In this document: positions 13,153 to 25,948 of the stretch, one piece after another
Layout of the letters: every line of letters begins with the position of its first letter
Position numbering within the stretch: position 1 is the first letter of the stretch
Source of the DNA: a virus
Taxonomy: Duplodnaviria; Heunggongvirae; Uroviricota; Caudoviricetes
Length of the DNA stretch: 32,066 nucleotides
Direction: 5' to 3' (one strand)
IMG/VR virus record: IMGVR_UViG_2565956714_000003
Program-made: the position numbers and the translations under genes
The notes under the pieces: generated by a model
What the model saw: only the letters and a program-made list of their open reading frames with translations
What the model was told of the DNA's origin: nothing
Databases searched by the model: none

Positions 13153-13604
13153 ACCTCCCACAAGATGGTATCAAATTGCATCGCGGTAACTTCACCGCTA
13201 TCGGTCGGCAGATCCAGCCTTATCTGGAGAACGGCAAATGCTTTCGCATGGTGCTTAAACCGTGGCGCGAGAGACGCAGTCTTTCCCAGAATGCACTCAG
13301 CCACATGTGGTACAGCGAAATCAGTGAATACCTCATCAGCAGGGGTAAAACGTTCGCCACTCCAGCTTGGGTAAAAGATGCTCTCAAACACACATATCTC
13401 GGTTATGAAACCAAAGACCTGGTTGATGTCGTAACCGGTGATATCACCACTATCCAGTCGTTACGCCATACCTCCGATCTTGATACCGGAGAGATGTATG
13501 TCTTCCTGTGTAAGGTTGAAGCCTGGGCGATGAATATTGGTTGCCATCTGACTATTCCGCAGAGCTGCGAGTTCCAGCAGCTCCGCGACAAGCAGGAGGC
13601 GTAA
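13149..13604 (+). CDS. ybcN: NinB-like recombination protein (YbcN)
   Basis: 151-aa ORF with GTG start preceded by GGAGG; recognised as the NinB/YbcN family. Confidence 0.85.
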
Positions 13605-13774
13605 TGGCTACACCGCTTATTCGTGTCATGAACGGACACATCTACAGAGTACCAAATCGTCGTAAGCGTAAACCTGAGCTGAAGCCATCCGAAATACCAA
13701 CACTGCTCGGGTATACCGCCAGCCTGGTTGATAAAAAATGGTTGCGACTGGCAGCAAGGAGGAGTCATGGCTGA
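13604..13774 (+). CDS. ninE: NinE protein
   Basis: 56-aa [59 protein letters not shown]; TAATG overlap with the ybcN stop. Confidence 0.85.
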   Translation: MATPLIRVMNGHIYRVPNRRKRKPELKPSEIPTLLGYTASLVDKKWLRLAARRSHG

Positions 13775-14057
13775 TTTGAGAAAAGCAGCGCGTGGTCGGG
13801 AATGCCAGGTAAGAATCCCTGGCGTATGTAATGGCAACCCTGAAACGTCTGTACTGGCACATATCCGGCTGACTGGATTGTGCGGCACCGGTACCAAACC
13901 GCCAGACCTGATTGCCACCATTGCATGTTCTGCCTGCCACGACGAAATCGACCGCCGCACACATTTTGTCGATGCTGCATATGCAAAAGAATGCGCGCTG
14001 GAAGGTATGGCGAGAACACAGGTTATCTGGCTGAAAGAGGGGATTATTAAGGCGTGA
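13767..14057 (+). CDS. ybcO: YbcO-like Cys-rich putative nuclease (DUF1364)
   Basis: 96-aa ORF with RBS AAGGAGGAG; Cys/His-rich ([11 protein letters not shown]...CSACHDEID); overlaps the ninE 3' end. Confidence 0.8.
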
Positions 14058-14416
14058 ATACCTACAGCATCACATTACCCTGGCCTCCGAGCAATAATCG
14101 CTATTACCGCCATAATCGCGGGCGCACGCACGTCAGCGCAGAGGGGCAGGCATACCGCGATAACGTCGCCCGAATCATTAAAAACGCAATGCTGGATATC
14201 GGCCTGGCTATGCCTGTGAAAATCCGCATTGAGTGCCACATGCCGGATCGCCGTCGCCGTGACCTGGATAATCTGCAAAAAGCCGCTTTTGACGCACTCA
14301 CTAAAGCAGGTTTCTGGCTGGATGATGCTCAGGTCGTTGATTACCGCGTTGTGAAGATGCCTGTTACCAAAGGTGGGAGGCTGGAACTGACCATCACCGA
14401 AATGGGGAATGAATGA
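14054..14416 (+). CDS. rusA: RusA Holliday-junction resolvase
   Basis: 120-aa [41 protein letters not shown]... recognised as RusA; GTG start overlapping the ybcO stop (GTGA). Confidence 0.93.
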
Positions 14417-14553
14417 TGTTTGAGTTTTATATGGCAGAACGTCTTCGCCACCGCTGGGGGCGTCTGCGCTTATATCGTTTCCCCGGTTCTGTTTTGACCG
14501 ATTACCGAATACTGAAGAATTACGCCAAAACCCTGACAGGAGCAGGAGTATGA
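14413..14553 (+). CDS. ylcG: Small protein YlcG-like (46 aa)
   Basis: [49 protein letters not shown] overlapping the rusA stop. Confidence 0.6.
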
Positions 14554-14638
14554 AGTCAGAGATAACAATCAACTAATACTGTTTCGTTGATTTTTGCTTG
14601 TAATTGGCGTTCTGGTCTGATTTTTGTGGAGTAAGTTG

Positions 14639-15022
14639 ATGCGTGATATTCAGATGGTTCTTGAGCGTTGGGGAGCGTGGGCGGCTAATAATCATGAAGA
14701 TGTGACCTGGTCGTCCATTGCCGCCGGTTTTAAGGGATTAATTACTTCAAAAGTAAAATCTCGCCCGCAATGTTGTGACGATGACGCGATGATTATTTGC
14801 GGGTGCATGGCCCGTCTGAAAAAGAACAACAGCGATTTGCACGATTTATTAGTAGATTATTATGTAGTCGGTATGACATTCATGTCACTGGCAGGTAAGC
14901 ATTGCTGCTCTGATGGTTATATCGGGAAAAGGTTACAGAAGGCTGAGGGCATAATTGAAGGGATGTTAATGGCATTAGATATCCGGTTAGAGATGGATAT
15001 CGTTGTTAATAACTCTAATTAA
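14639..15022 (+). CDS. quuD: Late-gene antiterminator Q (QuuD type)
   Basis: 127-aa [27 protein letters not shown]... with Cys-rich region ([16 protein letters not shown]); RBS GGAG; lies immediately before the late region. Confidence 0.85.
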
Positions 15023-15034
15023 TATGCCAATTGT

Positions 15035-15073
15035 TTACTAAAAATTATTAAAAATGGGGCGTTGAGACGCCCC
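15035..15073 (-). terminator. Candidate rho-independent terminator for the porin gene (minus strand)
   Basis: Hairpin GGGGCG-TTGAGA-CGCCCC (15056..15073) followed on the minus strand by a U-rich run (plus strand CTAAAAATTATTAAAAAT 15038..15055). Confidence 0.5.
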
Positions 15074-15161
15074 CAAAAATAAAGGGTAATATATAACAGA
15101 AGGTTTATATAGTTAGAAGCAAGGTTGTGCTTCTAAAGGAAGTGGCTTGAGGGAGCCACTT

Positions 15162-15203
15162 ATATGTTGGGGAGGCAACGCCTCCCGCAACATATCTTTT
15201 TCG
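15162..15203 (+). terminator. Strong rho-independent terminator on the plus strand downstream of Q (tR'-like candidate)
   Basis: About 15-bp stem ATATGTTGGGGAGGC / GCCTCCC(G)CAACATAT with 3-nt loop, followed by CTTTTTC (15196..15202). Confidence 0.6.
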
Positions 15204-16131
15204 TAATCAGATTAGAACTGGTAAACCAGACCTACAGCAACGATGTCATCAGTGCTTACACCGAGTGCTTTAGTGAAGTCATTTTTGTCAAGCAGGTTGA
15301 TTTTGTAATCAACGAAAGTAGACATATTTTTGTTGAAGTAATAGGTTGCACCTACATCAACATATTTGACTAAGTCCTGATCGCCCCATACTCCAAGATC
15401 TTTACCTTTAGATTGCAGGTAAGCAACGGACGGACGCAGACCGAAATCGAACTGATATTGTGCAACAGCTTCGAAGTTTTGGGCTTTATTAGCAACGAAG
15501 TGATCAGCAAATACAGTCATATTCTGGGTTTCAGAATAGGTAGTGGCCAGGTAAATGTTGTTAGCGTCATATTTCAGACCTGCGGCCCAAACTTCTGCAT
15601 TTTTACCGGAAGCAAATACTTCAGGAAGAACTTTCCCTGCATTAACTTGAGTGTCGGTACGATCAGATTTCGCATAAGTTGCACCGATACCGAATCCTTC
15701 GTATTCATAGGTAGCAGAGAAACCGAAGCCATCACCGTTACCTTCAGTGTAGTTATCGAAATCGCTACGATCGTTTTTGCCTTGGTACTGAGCAGCAAAG
15801 TTCAGACCATCAACCAGACCAAAGAAGTCGTTGTTACGATAGGTTGCAACACCAGTGGTGCGACCAGTCATGAACACATCTGTTTGGGTCCAGGTATCGC
15901 CACCGAATTCTGGCAGAACGTCAGTCCACGCACCGATGTCGTATGCTACACCGTAGTTACGGCCGTAATCGATTGAGCCGTAGTCACCGAATTTCAGGCC
16001 TGCAAATGCAAGACGGGTTTTGTCTTTGGAGGAACCTTGAGATTCAGCGCGGTTGCCTTTGAATTCATATTCCCACTGACCGAAACCAGTCAGTTGATCG
16101 TTGATTTGGGTTTCACCTTTGAAGCCAAGAC

Positions 16132-16140
16132 GGGCATAAG
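16132..16140. repeat. Target-site duplication (left copy) GGGCATAAG
   Basis: Identical 9-mer directly flanks both IS ends (16132..16140 and 17198..17206). Confidence 0.95.
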
Positions 16141-17197
16141 GGCTTTGTTGAATAAATCAGATTTCGGGTAAGTCTCCCCCGTAGCGGGTTGTGTTTTCAG
16201 GCAATACGCACGCTTTCAGGCATACCTGCTTTCGTCATTTTGTTCAGCGCTCGTACCAGGGCCATAGCCTCCGCAACCTGACCATCGTAGTCACGCAGCG
16301 TCAGTGAACCCCCGAACAGCTGTTTTACCCGGTACATCGCCGTTTCCGCTATCGAGCGACGGTTGTAATCTGTTGTCCATTTCCACCGCGCATTACTCCC
16401 GGTCATTCGCTGATTAGCCACTGCACGGTTACGGTCTGCATATTCACCGGGCCAGTAACCCGCACCTTTTCGGGGAGGGATAAGCGCGCTGATTTTCTTA
16501 CGCCGCAGTTCATCGTGACATAGCCGGGTATCGTAAGCGCCATCGGCGGCGGCTGACCTGATTTTCCGGTGGGTTTGCCGGATTAACCCGGGGAAGGCCT
16601 CTGAGTCCGTAACGTTGTTCAGCGACAGGTCAGCGCAGATGATTTCATGTGTTTTACTGTCAACGGCGAGATGCAGCTTACGCCAGATACGGCGGCGTTC
16701 CTGGCCATGCTTTTTGACTTTCCACTCGCCTTCACCGAAGACCTTCAGCCCGGTGGAATCAATTACCAGGTGTGCGATTTCACCCCGGGTGGGCGTTTTG
16801 AAACTGACATTAACCGACTTTGCCCGCCTGCTGACACAGCTGTAATCCGGGCAGCGTAGCGGAACGTTCATCAGAGAAAAAATGGAATCAATAAAGCCCT
16901 GCGCAGCGCGCAGGGTCAGCCTGAATACGCGTTTAATGACCAGCACAGTCGTGATGGCAAGGTCAGAATAGCGCTGAGGTCTGCCTCGTGAAGAAGGTGT
17001 TGCTGACTCATACCAGGCCTGAATAGCTTCATCATCCAGCCAGAAAGTTATGGAGCCACGGTTGATGAGGGCTTTATTGTAGGTGGGCCAGTTGGTGATT
17101 TTGAACTTTTGCTTTGCCACGGAACGGTCTGCGTTGTCGGGAAGATGCGTGATCTGATCCTTCAACTCAGCAAAAGTTCGATTTATTCAACAAAGCC
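16141..17197 (-). mobile_element. IS903/IS102-type insertion sequence (IS5 family), complete, 1057 bp
   Basis: Perfect 18-bp terminal inverted repeats GGCTTTGTTGAATAAATC (16141..16158) and GATTTATTCAACAAAGCC (17180..17197); 9-bp direct target duplication; one transposase ORF. Confidence 0.9.
16197..17165 (-). CDS. IS903-type transposase (DDE)
   Basis: 322-aa ORF filling the IS; start 32 bp inside the right inverted repeat. Confidence 0.85.
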   Translation of the reverse strand: MKDQITHLPDNADRSVAKQKFKITNWPTYNKALINRGSITFWLDDEAIQAWYESATPSSRGRPQRYSDLAITTVLVIKRVFRLTLRAAQGFIDSIFSLMNVPLRCPDYSCVSRRAKSVNVSFKTPTRGEIAHLVIDSTGLKVFGEGEWKVKKHGQERRRIWRKLHLAVDSKTHEIICADLSLNNVTDSEAFPGLIRQTHRKIRSAAADGAYDTRLCHDELRRKKISALIPPRKGAGYWPGEYADRNRAVANQRMTGSNARWKWTTDYNRRSIAETAMYRVKQLFGGSLTLRDYDGQVAEAMALVRALNKMTKAGMPESVRIA

Positions 17198-17206
17198 GGG
17201 CATAAG
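17198..17206. repeat. Target-site duplication (right copy) GGGCATAAG
   Basis: Identical to 16132..16140. Confidence 0.95.
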
Positions 17207-17963
17207 TAGTATCACCATCATCTGCATCATTAGAGGAGAAGTAGTGCTTGGCATTAACTTTCCCGTACAGATCCAGCTTGTTACTGTCTTTATTATAAAT
17301 TTCAGCTGCCTGAGCAGACATCGCCATCAGTACTGATGCAGCTACAGCAGAAATTGCCACTGTTAATTTTTTCATCGTGAGCCCTTTTTTTTGAACTATT
17401 ATTAAAAAATGATGTCACTGCGCGATAAATATTCATCTAATCAATGTGATTATTTCAAGATGTAAGTTTTAGTTTCTCATTTAATTTGTGAAGTAGATCT
17501 CTATTTTTATCTGAACTTTTTCTATCGAAACCTATTTATGGCTCTTATTTGAACAAAAATAAACCTATTAGCTAATTTATATTAATGGTTGTTATTTATG
17601 GAGGTTCTATAATTCGGCAGTTTAATTTAAATCAACTAAAAATAACGTCTGAAATTATTTATTGGTTATTTGTTGAGGTTTTCTTATGTATTTGTGGTGG
17701 TGTTTTGAACACTCGGTAGCATTCTCATAAATATCATTCAGTGGTTTACGTACGTAAAAAATTGGTTATGCTGTTAAGAGTGGTTACTTCGTCACACAGC
17801 TTAAACCCGCCGTCGAGCTGGTTTTTCCATTTTTTGAGTCTCGATATTAGCTGATAACTCAATACCTGAGTTATTCACTGACTCCGAGTCTGTTACGTTT
17901 CTGCTTTTTTGCGATACGTTGTATTCCCTCAATTTACACCCGCTTTGTCTGCGAGGTGGGGTT

Positions 17964-18179
17964 ATGAAATCCATGGATAAGTTAACAACGGGTGTCGCCT
18001 ATGGCACCTCAGCAGGTAGTGCCGGTTACTGGTTTTTACAGCTGCTCGATAAAGTCACGCCCTCACAGTGGGCAGCAATAGGTGTGCTGGGTAGCCTGGT
18101 ATTTGGCCTGCTGACGTACCTGACAAACCTTTATTTCAAGATTAAAGAAGATAAGCGCAAGGCTGCGAGAGGTGAATAA
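17964..18179 (+). CDS. essD: Holin, phage 21 S-type pinholin with dual-start motif
   Basis: 71-aa [74 protein letters not shown]; two in-frame starts (Met1, Met4) as in holin/antiholin pairs; two predicted TM helices. Confidence 0.9.
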
Positions 18180-18676
18180 TGCCTCCATCATTACGAAAAG
18201 CCGTTGCTGCTGCTATTGGTGGCGGAGCAATTGCTATAGCATCAGTGTTAATTACTGGCCCAAGTGGTAACGATGGTCTGGAAGGTGTCAGCTACATACC
18301 ATACAAAGATATTGTTGGTGTATGGACTGTATGTCACGGGCATACAGGAAAAGACATCATGCTCGGTAAAACGTATACCAAAGCAGAATGCAAAGCCCTC
18401 CTGAATAAAGACCTTGCCACGGTCGCCAGACAAATTAACCCGTACATCAAAGTCGATATACCGGAAACAATGCGCGGCGCTCTTTACTCATTCGTTTACA
18501 ACGTGGGTGCTGGCAATTTCAGAACATCGACGCTTCTTCGCAAAATAAACCAGGGCGATATCAAAGGCGCATGTGATCAGCTACGTCGCTGGACATATGC
18601 TGGCGGTAAGCAATGGAAAGGTCTCATGACTCGTCGTGAGATTGAGCGTGAAATCTGTTTGTGGGGTCAGCAATGA
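18179..18676 (+). CDS. rrrD: Endolysin, lysozyme with N-terminal signal-anchor-release (SAR) domain (R21 type)
   Basis: 165-aa ORF; hydrophobic Gly/Ala-rich N-terminus [20 protein letters not shown], then lysozyme-like core; start overlaps the holin stop. Confidence 0.9.
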
Positions 18677-19134
18677 ACAGAGTAACCGCGATTATCTCCG
18701 CTCTGGTTATCTGCATCATCGTCGGCCTGTCATGGGCTGTTAATCATTACCGTGATAACGCCATTACCTACAAAGCCCAGCGCGACAAAAATGCCAGAGA
18801 ACTGAAGCTGGCGAACGCGGCAATTACTGACATGCAGATGCGTCAGCGTGATGTTGCTGCGCTCGATGCAAAATACACGAAGGAGTTAGCTGATGCGAAA
18901 GCTGAAAATGATGCTCTGCGTGATGATGTTGCCGCTGGTCGTCGTCGGTTGCACATCAAAGCAGTCTGTCAGTCAGTGCGTGAAGCCACCACCGCCTCCG
19001 GCGTGGATAATGCAGCCTCCCCCCGACTGGCAGACACCGCTGAACGGGATTATTTCACCCTCAGAGAGAGGCTGATCACTATGCAAAAACAACTGGAAGG
19101 AGCCCAGAAGTATATTAATGAGCAGTGCAGATAG
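18673..19134 (+). CDS. rzpD: Spanin inner-membrane subunit Rz (lambda-like)
   Basis: 153-aa [63 protein letters not shown]... matches lambda Rz; ATGA overlap with the endolysin. Confidence 0.93.
18893..19075 (+). CDS. rzoD: Spanin outer-membrane lipoprotein Rz1, embedded in the +1 frame of Rz
   Basis: 60-aa [27 protein letters not shown]... with lipobox LVVVGC and proline-rich body, entirely inside Rz. Confidence 0.9.
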
Positions 19135-20947: not shown

Positions 20948-24628
<3,681 letters not shown>

Positions 24629-24648
<20 letters not shown>

Positions 24649-25948
24649 TCTCCCGCATATTGCCAGTATGGCCTTTAATGAGCCGCTGATGCTTGAACCC
24701 GCCTATGCGCGGGTTTTCTTTTGTGCGCTTGCAGGCCAGCTTGGGATCAGCCGCCTGACGGATGCGGTATCCGGCGACAGCCTGACTGCCGGAGAGGCAC
24801 CCGCGGCGCTGGCGTTATCCGTTGATGATGACGGACCACGACAGGCCCGCAGTTATCAGGTCATGAACGGCATCGCCGTGCTGCCGGTGTCCGGCACGCT
24901 GGTCAGCCGGACGCGGGCGCTGCAGCCGTATTCGGGGATGACCGGTTACAACGGCATTATCGCCCGTCTGCAACAGGCTGCCAGCGACCCGATGGTGGAC
25001 GGCATTCTGCTCGATATGGATACGCCAGGCGGGATGGTGGCAGGGGCATTTGACTGCGCTGACATCATCGCCCGTGTGCGTGACATAAAGCCGGTATGGG
25101 CGCTGGCCAATGACATGAACTGCAGCGCAGGTCAGCTGCTTGCCAGTGCCTCCTCCCGGCGTCTGGTCACGCAGACCGCCCGGACAGGCTCCATCGGCGT
25201 CATGATGGCTCACAGTAATTACGGCGCTGCGCTGGAGAAACAGGGCGTGGAAATCACGCTGATTTACAGCGGTAGCCATAAGGTGGATGGCAACCCCTAC
25301 AGCCATCTACCGGATGATGTCCGGGAAACATTGCAGTCCCGGATGGATGCAACCCGCCGGATGTTTGCACAGAAGGTGTCGGCATATACCGGCCTGTCCG
25401 TGCAGGCTGTGCTGGATACCGAGGCTGCAGTGTACAGCGGTCAGGAGGCCATTGATGCCGGACTGGCTGATGAACTTGTTAACAGTACCGATGCGATCAC
25501 CGTCATGCGTGATGCACTGGATGCACGTAAATCCCGTCTCTCAGGAGGGCGAATGACCAAAGAGACTCAATCAACAACTGTTTCAGCCACTGCTTCGCAG
25601 GCTGACGTTACTGGCGTGGTGCAAGCGACGGAGGGCGAGAACGCCAGCGCGGCGCAGCCGGACGTGAACGCGCAGATCACCGCAGCGGTTGCGGCAGAAA
25701 ACAGTCGCATTATGGGGATCCTCAACTGTGAGGAGGCTCACGGACGCGAAGAACAGGCACGCGTGCTGGCCGAAACCCCCGGTATGACCGTGGAAACGGC
25801 CCGCCGCATTCTGGCCGCTGCACCACAGAGTGCACAGGCGCGCAGTGACACTGCGCTGGATCGTCTGATGCAGGGGGCACCGGCACCGCTGGCTGCAGGT
25901 AACCCGGCATCTGATGCCGTTAACGATTTGCTGAACACACCAGTGTAA
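24629..25948 (+). CDS. C: Head maturation protease / scaffold C
   Basis: 439-aa ORF from a GTG start preceded by AGGAGGAG; sequence TAELRNLPHIASMAFNEPLMLEPAYARVFF... matches lambda gpC. Confidence 0.93.
25343..25948 (+). CDS. nu3: Scaffolding protein Nu3 (in-frame internal start within C)
   Basis: ATG at 25343 in the C frame gives MDATRRMFAQKVSAYTGLSVQAVLDTEAAVYSGQEAIDAGLADELV... matching lambda Nu3. Confidence 0.85.
   Translation: MDATRRMFAQKVSAYTGLSVQAVLDTEAAVYSGQEAIDAGLADELVNSTDAITVMRDALDARKSRLSGGRMTKETQSTTVSATASQADVTGVVQATEGENASAAQPDVNAQITAAVAAENSRIMGILNCEEAHGREEQARVLAETPGMTVETARRILAAAPQSAQARSDTALDRLMQGAPAPLAAGNPASDAVNDLLNTPV

Follow-up and report, generated by a model that had tools for sequence, protein, structure and literature searches.

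The 189-bp spacer between the Q antiterminator gene and the converging porin gene of this lambdoid prophage is best explained as the 3' flank of the porin insert, carrying two one-way terminators that face in opposite directions, while the late promoter would lie elsewhere, at 17745-17772; we give this reading a probability of roughly 0.75. The window, i.e., the whole stretch of DNA that was analyzed, measures 32,066 nucleotides. The genes around the junction are organized as follows:

14054-14416: rusA.
Listed between rusA and Q: a ylcG-like ORF.
14639..15022, plus strand: Q antiterminator gene, 127 aa, QuuD-type, Q21 family (Pfam PF06530, E = 3.5e-53).
15212..17375, minus strand: porin gene of the lc/nmpC type (Pfam Porin_1, comparison with the intact allele, annotation of relatives).
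About 16141-17192: IS903-like element inside the porin gene (Pfam DDE transposase, comparison with the intact allele).
17964..18179, plus strand: holin gene of the phage 21 S type (Pfam PF04971, annotation of the 434B relative), the first late gene.

The spacer is delimited by the stop codon of Q (15020-15022) and that of the porin gene (15212-15214, minus strand), whose start codon is located at 17375 on the same strand. Over 201 bp, it matches the lc record of phage PA-2 (J02580) and the DLP12 segment of phage 434B (OL657227) at 100% identity. About 30 further sequenced phages carry a spacer with 93-98% identity, flanked by Q and the porin gene in every one. The order Q, spacer, leftward porin, holin is that of the PA-2 lc region and of the nmpC region of the K-12 prophage DLP12 (qsr'), and the public records of PA-2 and DLP12 present the spacer without any annotated terminator or promoter. 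The porin gene itself is broken differently: here, by the IS903-like element, about 235 bp from the start codon; in K-12, by IS5 after codon 346. The element at about 16141-17192 also belongs to the IS5 family, as an insertion differing from the K-12 IS5. Of the complete E. coli genomes, just two contained a place with a query coverage of at least 80%, with identities of 97% and 90%. E. coli strains such as SE11 and ECO2947 lack the IS and are otherwise 99.9-100% identical to the query.

Judged from gene order and homology, the spacer is evidently the 3' border of an inserted lc/nmpC porin gene, a "moron" placed between Q and Q's promoter. Morons, a term of Hendrix and colleagues, are reportedly additional genes that bring their own promoter and terminator and lie between conserved genes of a phage. 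In the present case, elements that are nearly adjacent in related phages (34-55 bp apart in the Stx type) are separated by about 1650 bp in the porin type. The porin block has a G+C content below that of the neighboring phage genes, and lc is expressed in lysogens. CRP sites are annotated upstream of lc in J02580. As in phage morons, a leftward gene of lower G+C with its own regulatory flank and terminator thus sits between elements that adjoin each other in relatives; unlike them, the porin insert would also bring a second terminator, facing the early operon of the phage. A parallel is offered by PhiR40_1, in which Q is followed by a plus-strand terminator-like hairpin, a leftward inserted gene and then the late promoter cassette described below.

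The spacer is highly structured. Folding of the plus strand gives a minimum free energy of -65.5 kcal/mol (z = -6.2), and that of the minus strand -67.2 kcal/mol (z = -9.2); on either strand, none of 200 shuffles was as good. Three hairpins had been described in these 190 bp by an earlier note; the hairpins are real, but their count is four, the additional ones being those at 15113-15136 and 15141-15160:

15056-15073 (15040..15073 with the tail), minus strand: hairpin 1, 7 bp, -12.5 kcal/mol.
15113-15136: hairpin 2, 8-9 bp, -9.7 kcal/mol, U-run on neither strand.
15141-15160: hairpin 3, 8 bp, -11.5 kcal/mol, U-run on neither strand.
15162-15195 (15162..15202 with the tail), plus strand: hairpin 4, 15 bp with a bulged G15187, -20.8 kcal/mol.

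Hairpin 1 is followed by a U-rich tail (ATTTTTAATAATTTTT) on the minus strand only. It lies about 140 nt beyond the porin stop codon, in the same orientation, and the terminator scan also picked it. Because its U-run is confined to the minus strand, it is likely the intrinsic terminator of the porin mRNA, as had been proposed. Hairpin 4 is located 140 nt beyond the Q stop codon, again in the same orientation, and is followed by CTTTTTC (15196-15202) on the plus strand only, so that it would stop transcripts leaving Q. The terminator scan overlooked it because the stem rule of the scan permits no bulge. The G+C-rich stem and the one-sided T-run support its assignment as a plus-strand intrinsic terminator, which would close the transcription unit of Q immediately ahead of the antisense porin gene; the earlier suggestion that only an antiterminated polymerase passes this point fits the same features. 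However, the T-run is short (five T) and in many natural variants is reduced to TTTT followed by A; termination may therefore be partial.

The combination that defines an intrinsic terminator, a G+C-rich stem-loop followed by a U-run, is found at hairpin 1 on the minus strand and at hairpin 4 on the plus strand. At hairpins 2 and 3, such a U-run was looked for on both strands and is absent. Furthermore, none of the hairpins has the A-run upstream and the U-run downstream that would make it a bidirectional terminator, each U-run being one-stranded. Bidirectional terminators at convergent gene pairs of E. coli have been described by full-length RNA profiling. As in those pairs, the 3' ends of two converging genes are found here within one short spacer; in place of a single two-way hairpin, however, two one-way terminators would stand at its far ends. 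The 69-aa ORF1 of the PA-2 record (15164-15373), whose start falls within hairpin 4 and whose course is antisense to the porin gene, was rejected as spurious: it is intact in 29 of 81 loci, is cut to 12 aa in 45, and is probably not a gene. In K-12, whose spacer is identical, a strong terminator added in the nmpC/quuD spacer changed nothing, from which the authors of that study concluded that one or more intrinsic terminators already lie within it (PMC11677980).

The junction could work as follows. The porin insert, oriented leftward, would have landed between Q and Q's own late promoter. The porin mRNA, made from the minus strand, would run through hairpins 4, 3 and 2 and end at hairpin 1, about 30 nt short of entering Q in antisense. 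Rightward Q transcripts, which belong to the early right operon, would pass hairpins 1, 2 and 3 and end at hairpin 4, about 10 nt short of an antisense entry into the porin gene. Since each terminator stands at the end of the spacer that is farther from its gene, the 3' untranslated regions of the two mRNAs would share an overlap of about 150 nt. In the lysogen, the pair would insulate an expressed porin gene and a silent Q gene from each other, and during lytic growth, hairpin 4 would presumably be passed by antiterminated polymerase arriving from the early operon. Hairpins 2 and 3 may stabilize the 3' ends. Late transcription would begin at the cassette, with a start near 17779 and a small terminator-like hairpin directly after it. 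With the promoter beside the holin gene, the late transcript need not cross the porin gene or the IS.

Natural variation in the spacer is limited: 25 distinct variants are 97% identical per column and, for this reason, contain no informative covariation. After four error-prone rows had been dropped, two of the 18 variable columns were found within the 76 paired columns (binomial P = 0.008). The other 16 lie at unpaired positions, among them the loop of hairpin 1 and both the loop and the bulge of hairpin 4. This is modest evidence that the stems are under constraint. The stem of hairpin 1 shows one singleton change among the 25 variants, and its loop occurs as GAGA, GAAA or GCAA. Hairpin 2 has lost one stem pair (A-U to A-C) in 9 of the 25.

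Four stable hairpins with conserved stems in 190 bp are more than two terminators need. Besides terminating, the spacer might yield a stable, structured small RNA or an RNase III substrate that couples the expression of porin and Q. Three forms can be envisaged: a fragment of the porin 3'UTR of about 165 nt, on the minus strand, could persist; a plus-strand RNA of about 105 nt, containing hairpins 2-4, could arise from the weak promoter-like match TTGAGA(15062)-17-GGTAAT inside hairpin 1 or from processing of the Q mRNA; or the two overlapping 3' ends could together make up an RNase III substrate. There is a precedent in StxS and in the 6S RNA of lambda, both of which come from lambdoid late-control regions (PMC7547250). 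However, the -35-like hexamer of the plus-strand form coincides with the loop of hairpin 1, which varies, and the -10-like GGTAAT has no A at the key position 2. Moreover, hairpin 2 would be impaired by the broken pair in more than a third of the variants, covariation is absent from the alignment, an Rfam search of 13500-19000 (E <= 1) matched no family, and a literature search for an RNA of the quuD-nmpC spacer found no report. A small RNA or RNase III substrate of this kind is unlikely. A role beyond the two terminators for complementary 3' ends of the porin and Q mRNAs, over about 150 nt, or for a small RNA of 100-170 nt, is rated as quite unlikely. If true, such an overlap or small RNA would let the lysogen-expressed porin dampen stray Q, or would act in trans, and would represent a new prophage-maintenance RNA, in spirit like the lambda antisense RNAs or StxS.

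The hairpins could also be sequence debris without a transcriptional function, for instance scars of recombination or the remains of a repeat element that borders the insert. Hairpins 2 and 3, lacking a U-run, would fit this idea, as would the position of the spacer in the recombination hot spot that separates Q from the cassette. This is very unlikely, given the conservation of the stems relative to the loops and the canonical, correctly oriented tails of hairpins 1 and 4 at the ends of converging genes. In addition, a scan with one genome per species found the hairpin 4 sequence in E. coli only, apart from one match in a Rhodospirillum MAG and one in a 442-bp Streptomyces contig; it is therefore not a dispersed repeat.

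The location of the late promoter is best approached through the Q protein. The close relatives of the Q of the window are the Q proteins of Stx phages; among characterized systems, the nearest is 933W/Sp5, with a Q that is 78% identical. It belongs to the Q21 Pfam family, yet it is distant from the structurally solved Q21, and it is unrelated in sequence to lambda Q. In 933W/Sp5, the late control cassette consists of Q, pR', the StxS RNA and tR'. When the Sp5 region from Q to tR' was compared with the window, 63 of 83 positions (76%, E = 4e-12) were identical at 17744-17826, and nothing in the spacer matched. The 83 bp common to both phages comprise the promoter and a hairpin:

17744..17826, plus strand: homolog of the mapped 933W/Sp5 late promoter cassette, 83 bp, 185 bp upstream of the holin gene.
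17745-17750, plus strand: putative -35 element TTTACG, by homology.
17767-17772, plus strand: putative -10 element TATGCT, by homology.
Near A17779, plus strand: predicted late start, by homology to the Sp5 start.
About 17803-17824 (with the T-run, about +25 to +58), plus strand: tR'-like hairpin with a T-run, weakened here by a G-to-T change.

The primary late start of Sp5 was mapped by dRNA-seq at 258 nt upstream of the 3' end of tR' (PMC7547250, Sy et al. 2020). On the Sakai sequence, this position falls at about 745 of the corresponding locus (L007), 6-7 nt beyond TATCAT, which is itself preceded by TTTACG at a distance of 16 bp. The sole other significant Sp5 match in the window is a 26-bp hairpin look-alike in a late gene, at 24695-24720. 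This sequence (GAACCCGCCTATGCGCGGGTTTTCTT) is 92% identical to the hairpin following the Sp5 late promoter and lies within a long ORF of the late region (24494-25948) encoding ...EPAYARVFF...; the likeness is probably a coincidence.

Several differences separate the two phages. In Sp5, the cassette abuts Q and contains the Q stop codon; in the window, the porin gene intervenes, and the distance from Q is 2.7 kb, or 1.65 kb if the IS is discounted. Sp5 has no counterpart of the spacer, and the window lacks the 3' part of StxS with its terminator. The left end of the cassette was considered as a relic of a longer Q gene and rejected, as only the last four to five codons resemble the tail of Sp5 Q; the more cautious description is that the reading frame of Sp5 Q extends into the cassette. 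A further arrangement is seen in phage 1H12, whose Q is 87.5% identical: downstream of it (positions 1880-2010 of locus L004) are a promoter-like TTGCTG-17-TAATGT and a TAGAAT element, then a terminator-bearing segment with homology to the 3' part of the StxS small RNA, and finally a leftward lipocalin gene. This segment may give rise to an independently transcribed StxS-like RNA.

Linkage of the cassette to this Q family was followed across viral contigs. The 80 loci with a 100%-identical Q all have the order spacer, porin, porin promoter region and cassette, as far as the contig reaches; four of them are cut by the contig end and so lack the distal parts. Scanning for the cassette pattern yielded 119 further loci; in these, the cassette is preceded by a Q of the same family whenever the contig extends more than about 1.6 kb upstream. 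The distance from Q to the cassette falls into classes: 34-55 bp in the Stx type, where the two are adjacent, 512-1080 bp with other inserts, 1600-1670 bp with the porin, and 3031 bp. At least four insert classes thus occur in this stretch in viral contigs, namely none, 0.5-1.1 kb, the 1.65-kb porin and 3 kb. On the other side, the Q proteins diverge directly after a conserved LEMD motif near residue 122. This divergence and the distance classes together mark the stretch from Q codon ~122 to the cassette -35 element (about 15005-15022 to 17744) as what is evidently a recurrent insertion site.

Conservation of the cassette extends over four different genomic contexts, among which its hairpin has undergone a compensatory change, and the cassette is invariant in 18 natural variants of the region upstream of the holin gene, the flanks of which vary. 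Its hexamers (TTTACG/TATGCT) match the consensus at just 8 of 12 positions, so that the assignment rests on homology and on the linkage to the Q family, not on consensus. Most likely, then, the Q-dependent late promoter is at 17745-17772 and not in the spacer. The hairpin of the cassette was not called by the terminator scan of the window; it has a free energy of -12 kcal/mol in most variants and of -5.8 kcal/mol in the window. The G-to-T change at 17818 is shared by the window, PA-2 and about a fifth of the relatives, and it might raise Q-independent read-through into the lysis genes.

The cassette would follow the general logic of lambda, in which Q is succeeded by a constitutive promoter, then by an early pause, and the lysis genes come after a terminator (bioRxiv 10.1101/651190). 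This logic, that of lambda pR'/6S RNA/tR' and of the Q21 loading site, would apply to 17744-17826 and not to the spacer. A likeness between the start region of the cassette (AACGATGGGTTAATTCG) and the pause region of lambda pR' (AAGAGTGGTTACTTCG) is suggestive but was not retained, as the -10-like element would straddle the predicted start.

The earlier note had suggested that pR' could lie in the spacer itself, with hairpin 4 as a tR'-like element and a late transcript traveling about 2.7 kb antisense to the porin gene and through the IS before reaching the holin gene:

15024..15051, plus strand: formerly proposed promoter ATGCCA-16-TATTAA, 4/6 + 4/6 = 8/12, a chance match.

Most lambdoid phages do have pR' directly after Q (PMC7547250; bioRxiv 10.1101/651190), a plus-strand terminator stands about 140 nt downstream of the proposed start, and an A-rich, -10-like AAAAAT is present at 15075-15080, within the would-be early transcribed region. 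However, matches as good as this candidate occur in the window about 4.9 times per kb per strand, or about once per 200 bp, and a stricter promoter scan called no plus-strand promoter in the spacer. The -10 element, given as 15047-15052, actually occupies 15046-15051, which leaves 16 bp to ATGCCA, and it lacks the final T of a -10 hexamer; the -35 element is polymorphic, with T to C at 15025 in relatives. Consensus scanning alone fails to separate this candidate from the cassette, both scoring 8/12. What separates them is that the spacer is unlike the late promoter of phages whose Q is 78-88% identical, that the conserved homolog of this promoter is at 17744-17826, and that unrelated inserts separate the cassette from Q in other lineages too. 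A late promoter in the spacer is thus highly improbable: hairpin 4 would stay as a terminator, its reading as the tR' of the late promoter being unsupported, and the long antisense passage would not be required, since the promoter homolog adjoins the holin gene.

The start predicted from the cassette falls within 17376-17963, the interval in which the earlier note had expected a late start if its own proposal were wrong. The same interval contains essDp, the published lysis promoter of DLP12, which is of the RpoE type (PMC7918800). From the primers and the stated range of -121 to +650, this promoter was placed at about 17424-17440, in a reconstruction for which the printed reverse primer does not match the genome exactly (PMC7918800). 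Its TGAACT is found at 17392-17397, and the whole element, at about 17392-17440, precedes the cassette by about 350 bp. Both essDp and the cassette are contained in the reporter fragments of that study (17303 to about 18090; PMC7918800). Given this published promoter ahead of the cassette, the map proposed here for transcription of the porin-holin spacer is provisional.

The terminator pair as such is ordinary; it borders a porin insert that has long been known, and its DNA is the same as that of PA-2 and of the K-12 prophage DLP12. The use of the present analysis is a corrected map of a widespread prophage module, in which the promoter of Q would lie behind the insert, beside the lysis genes. 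This map suggests that the published promoter fragments of the DLP12 lysis cassette contain the Q-linked cassette, and the response of these fragments to Q could be explained in this way. The interval that separates Q from its promoter would, moreover, be a recurrent landing site for extra genes.
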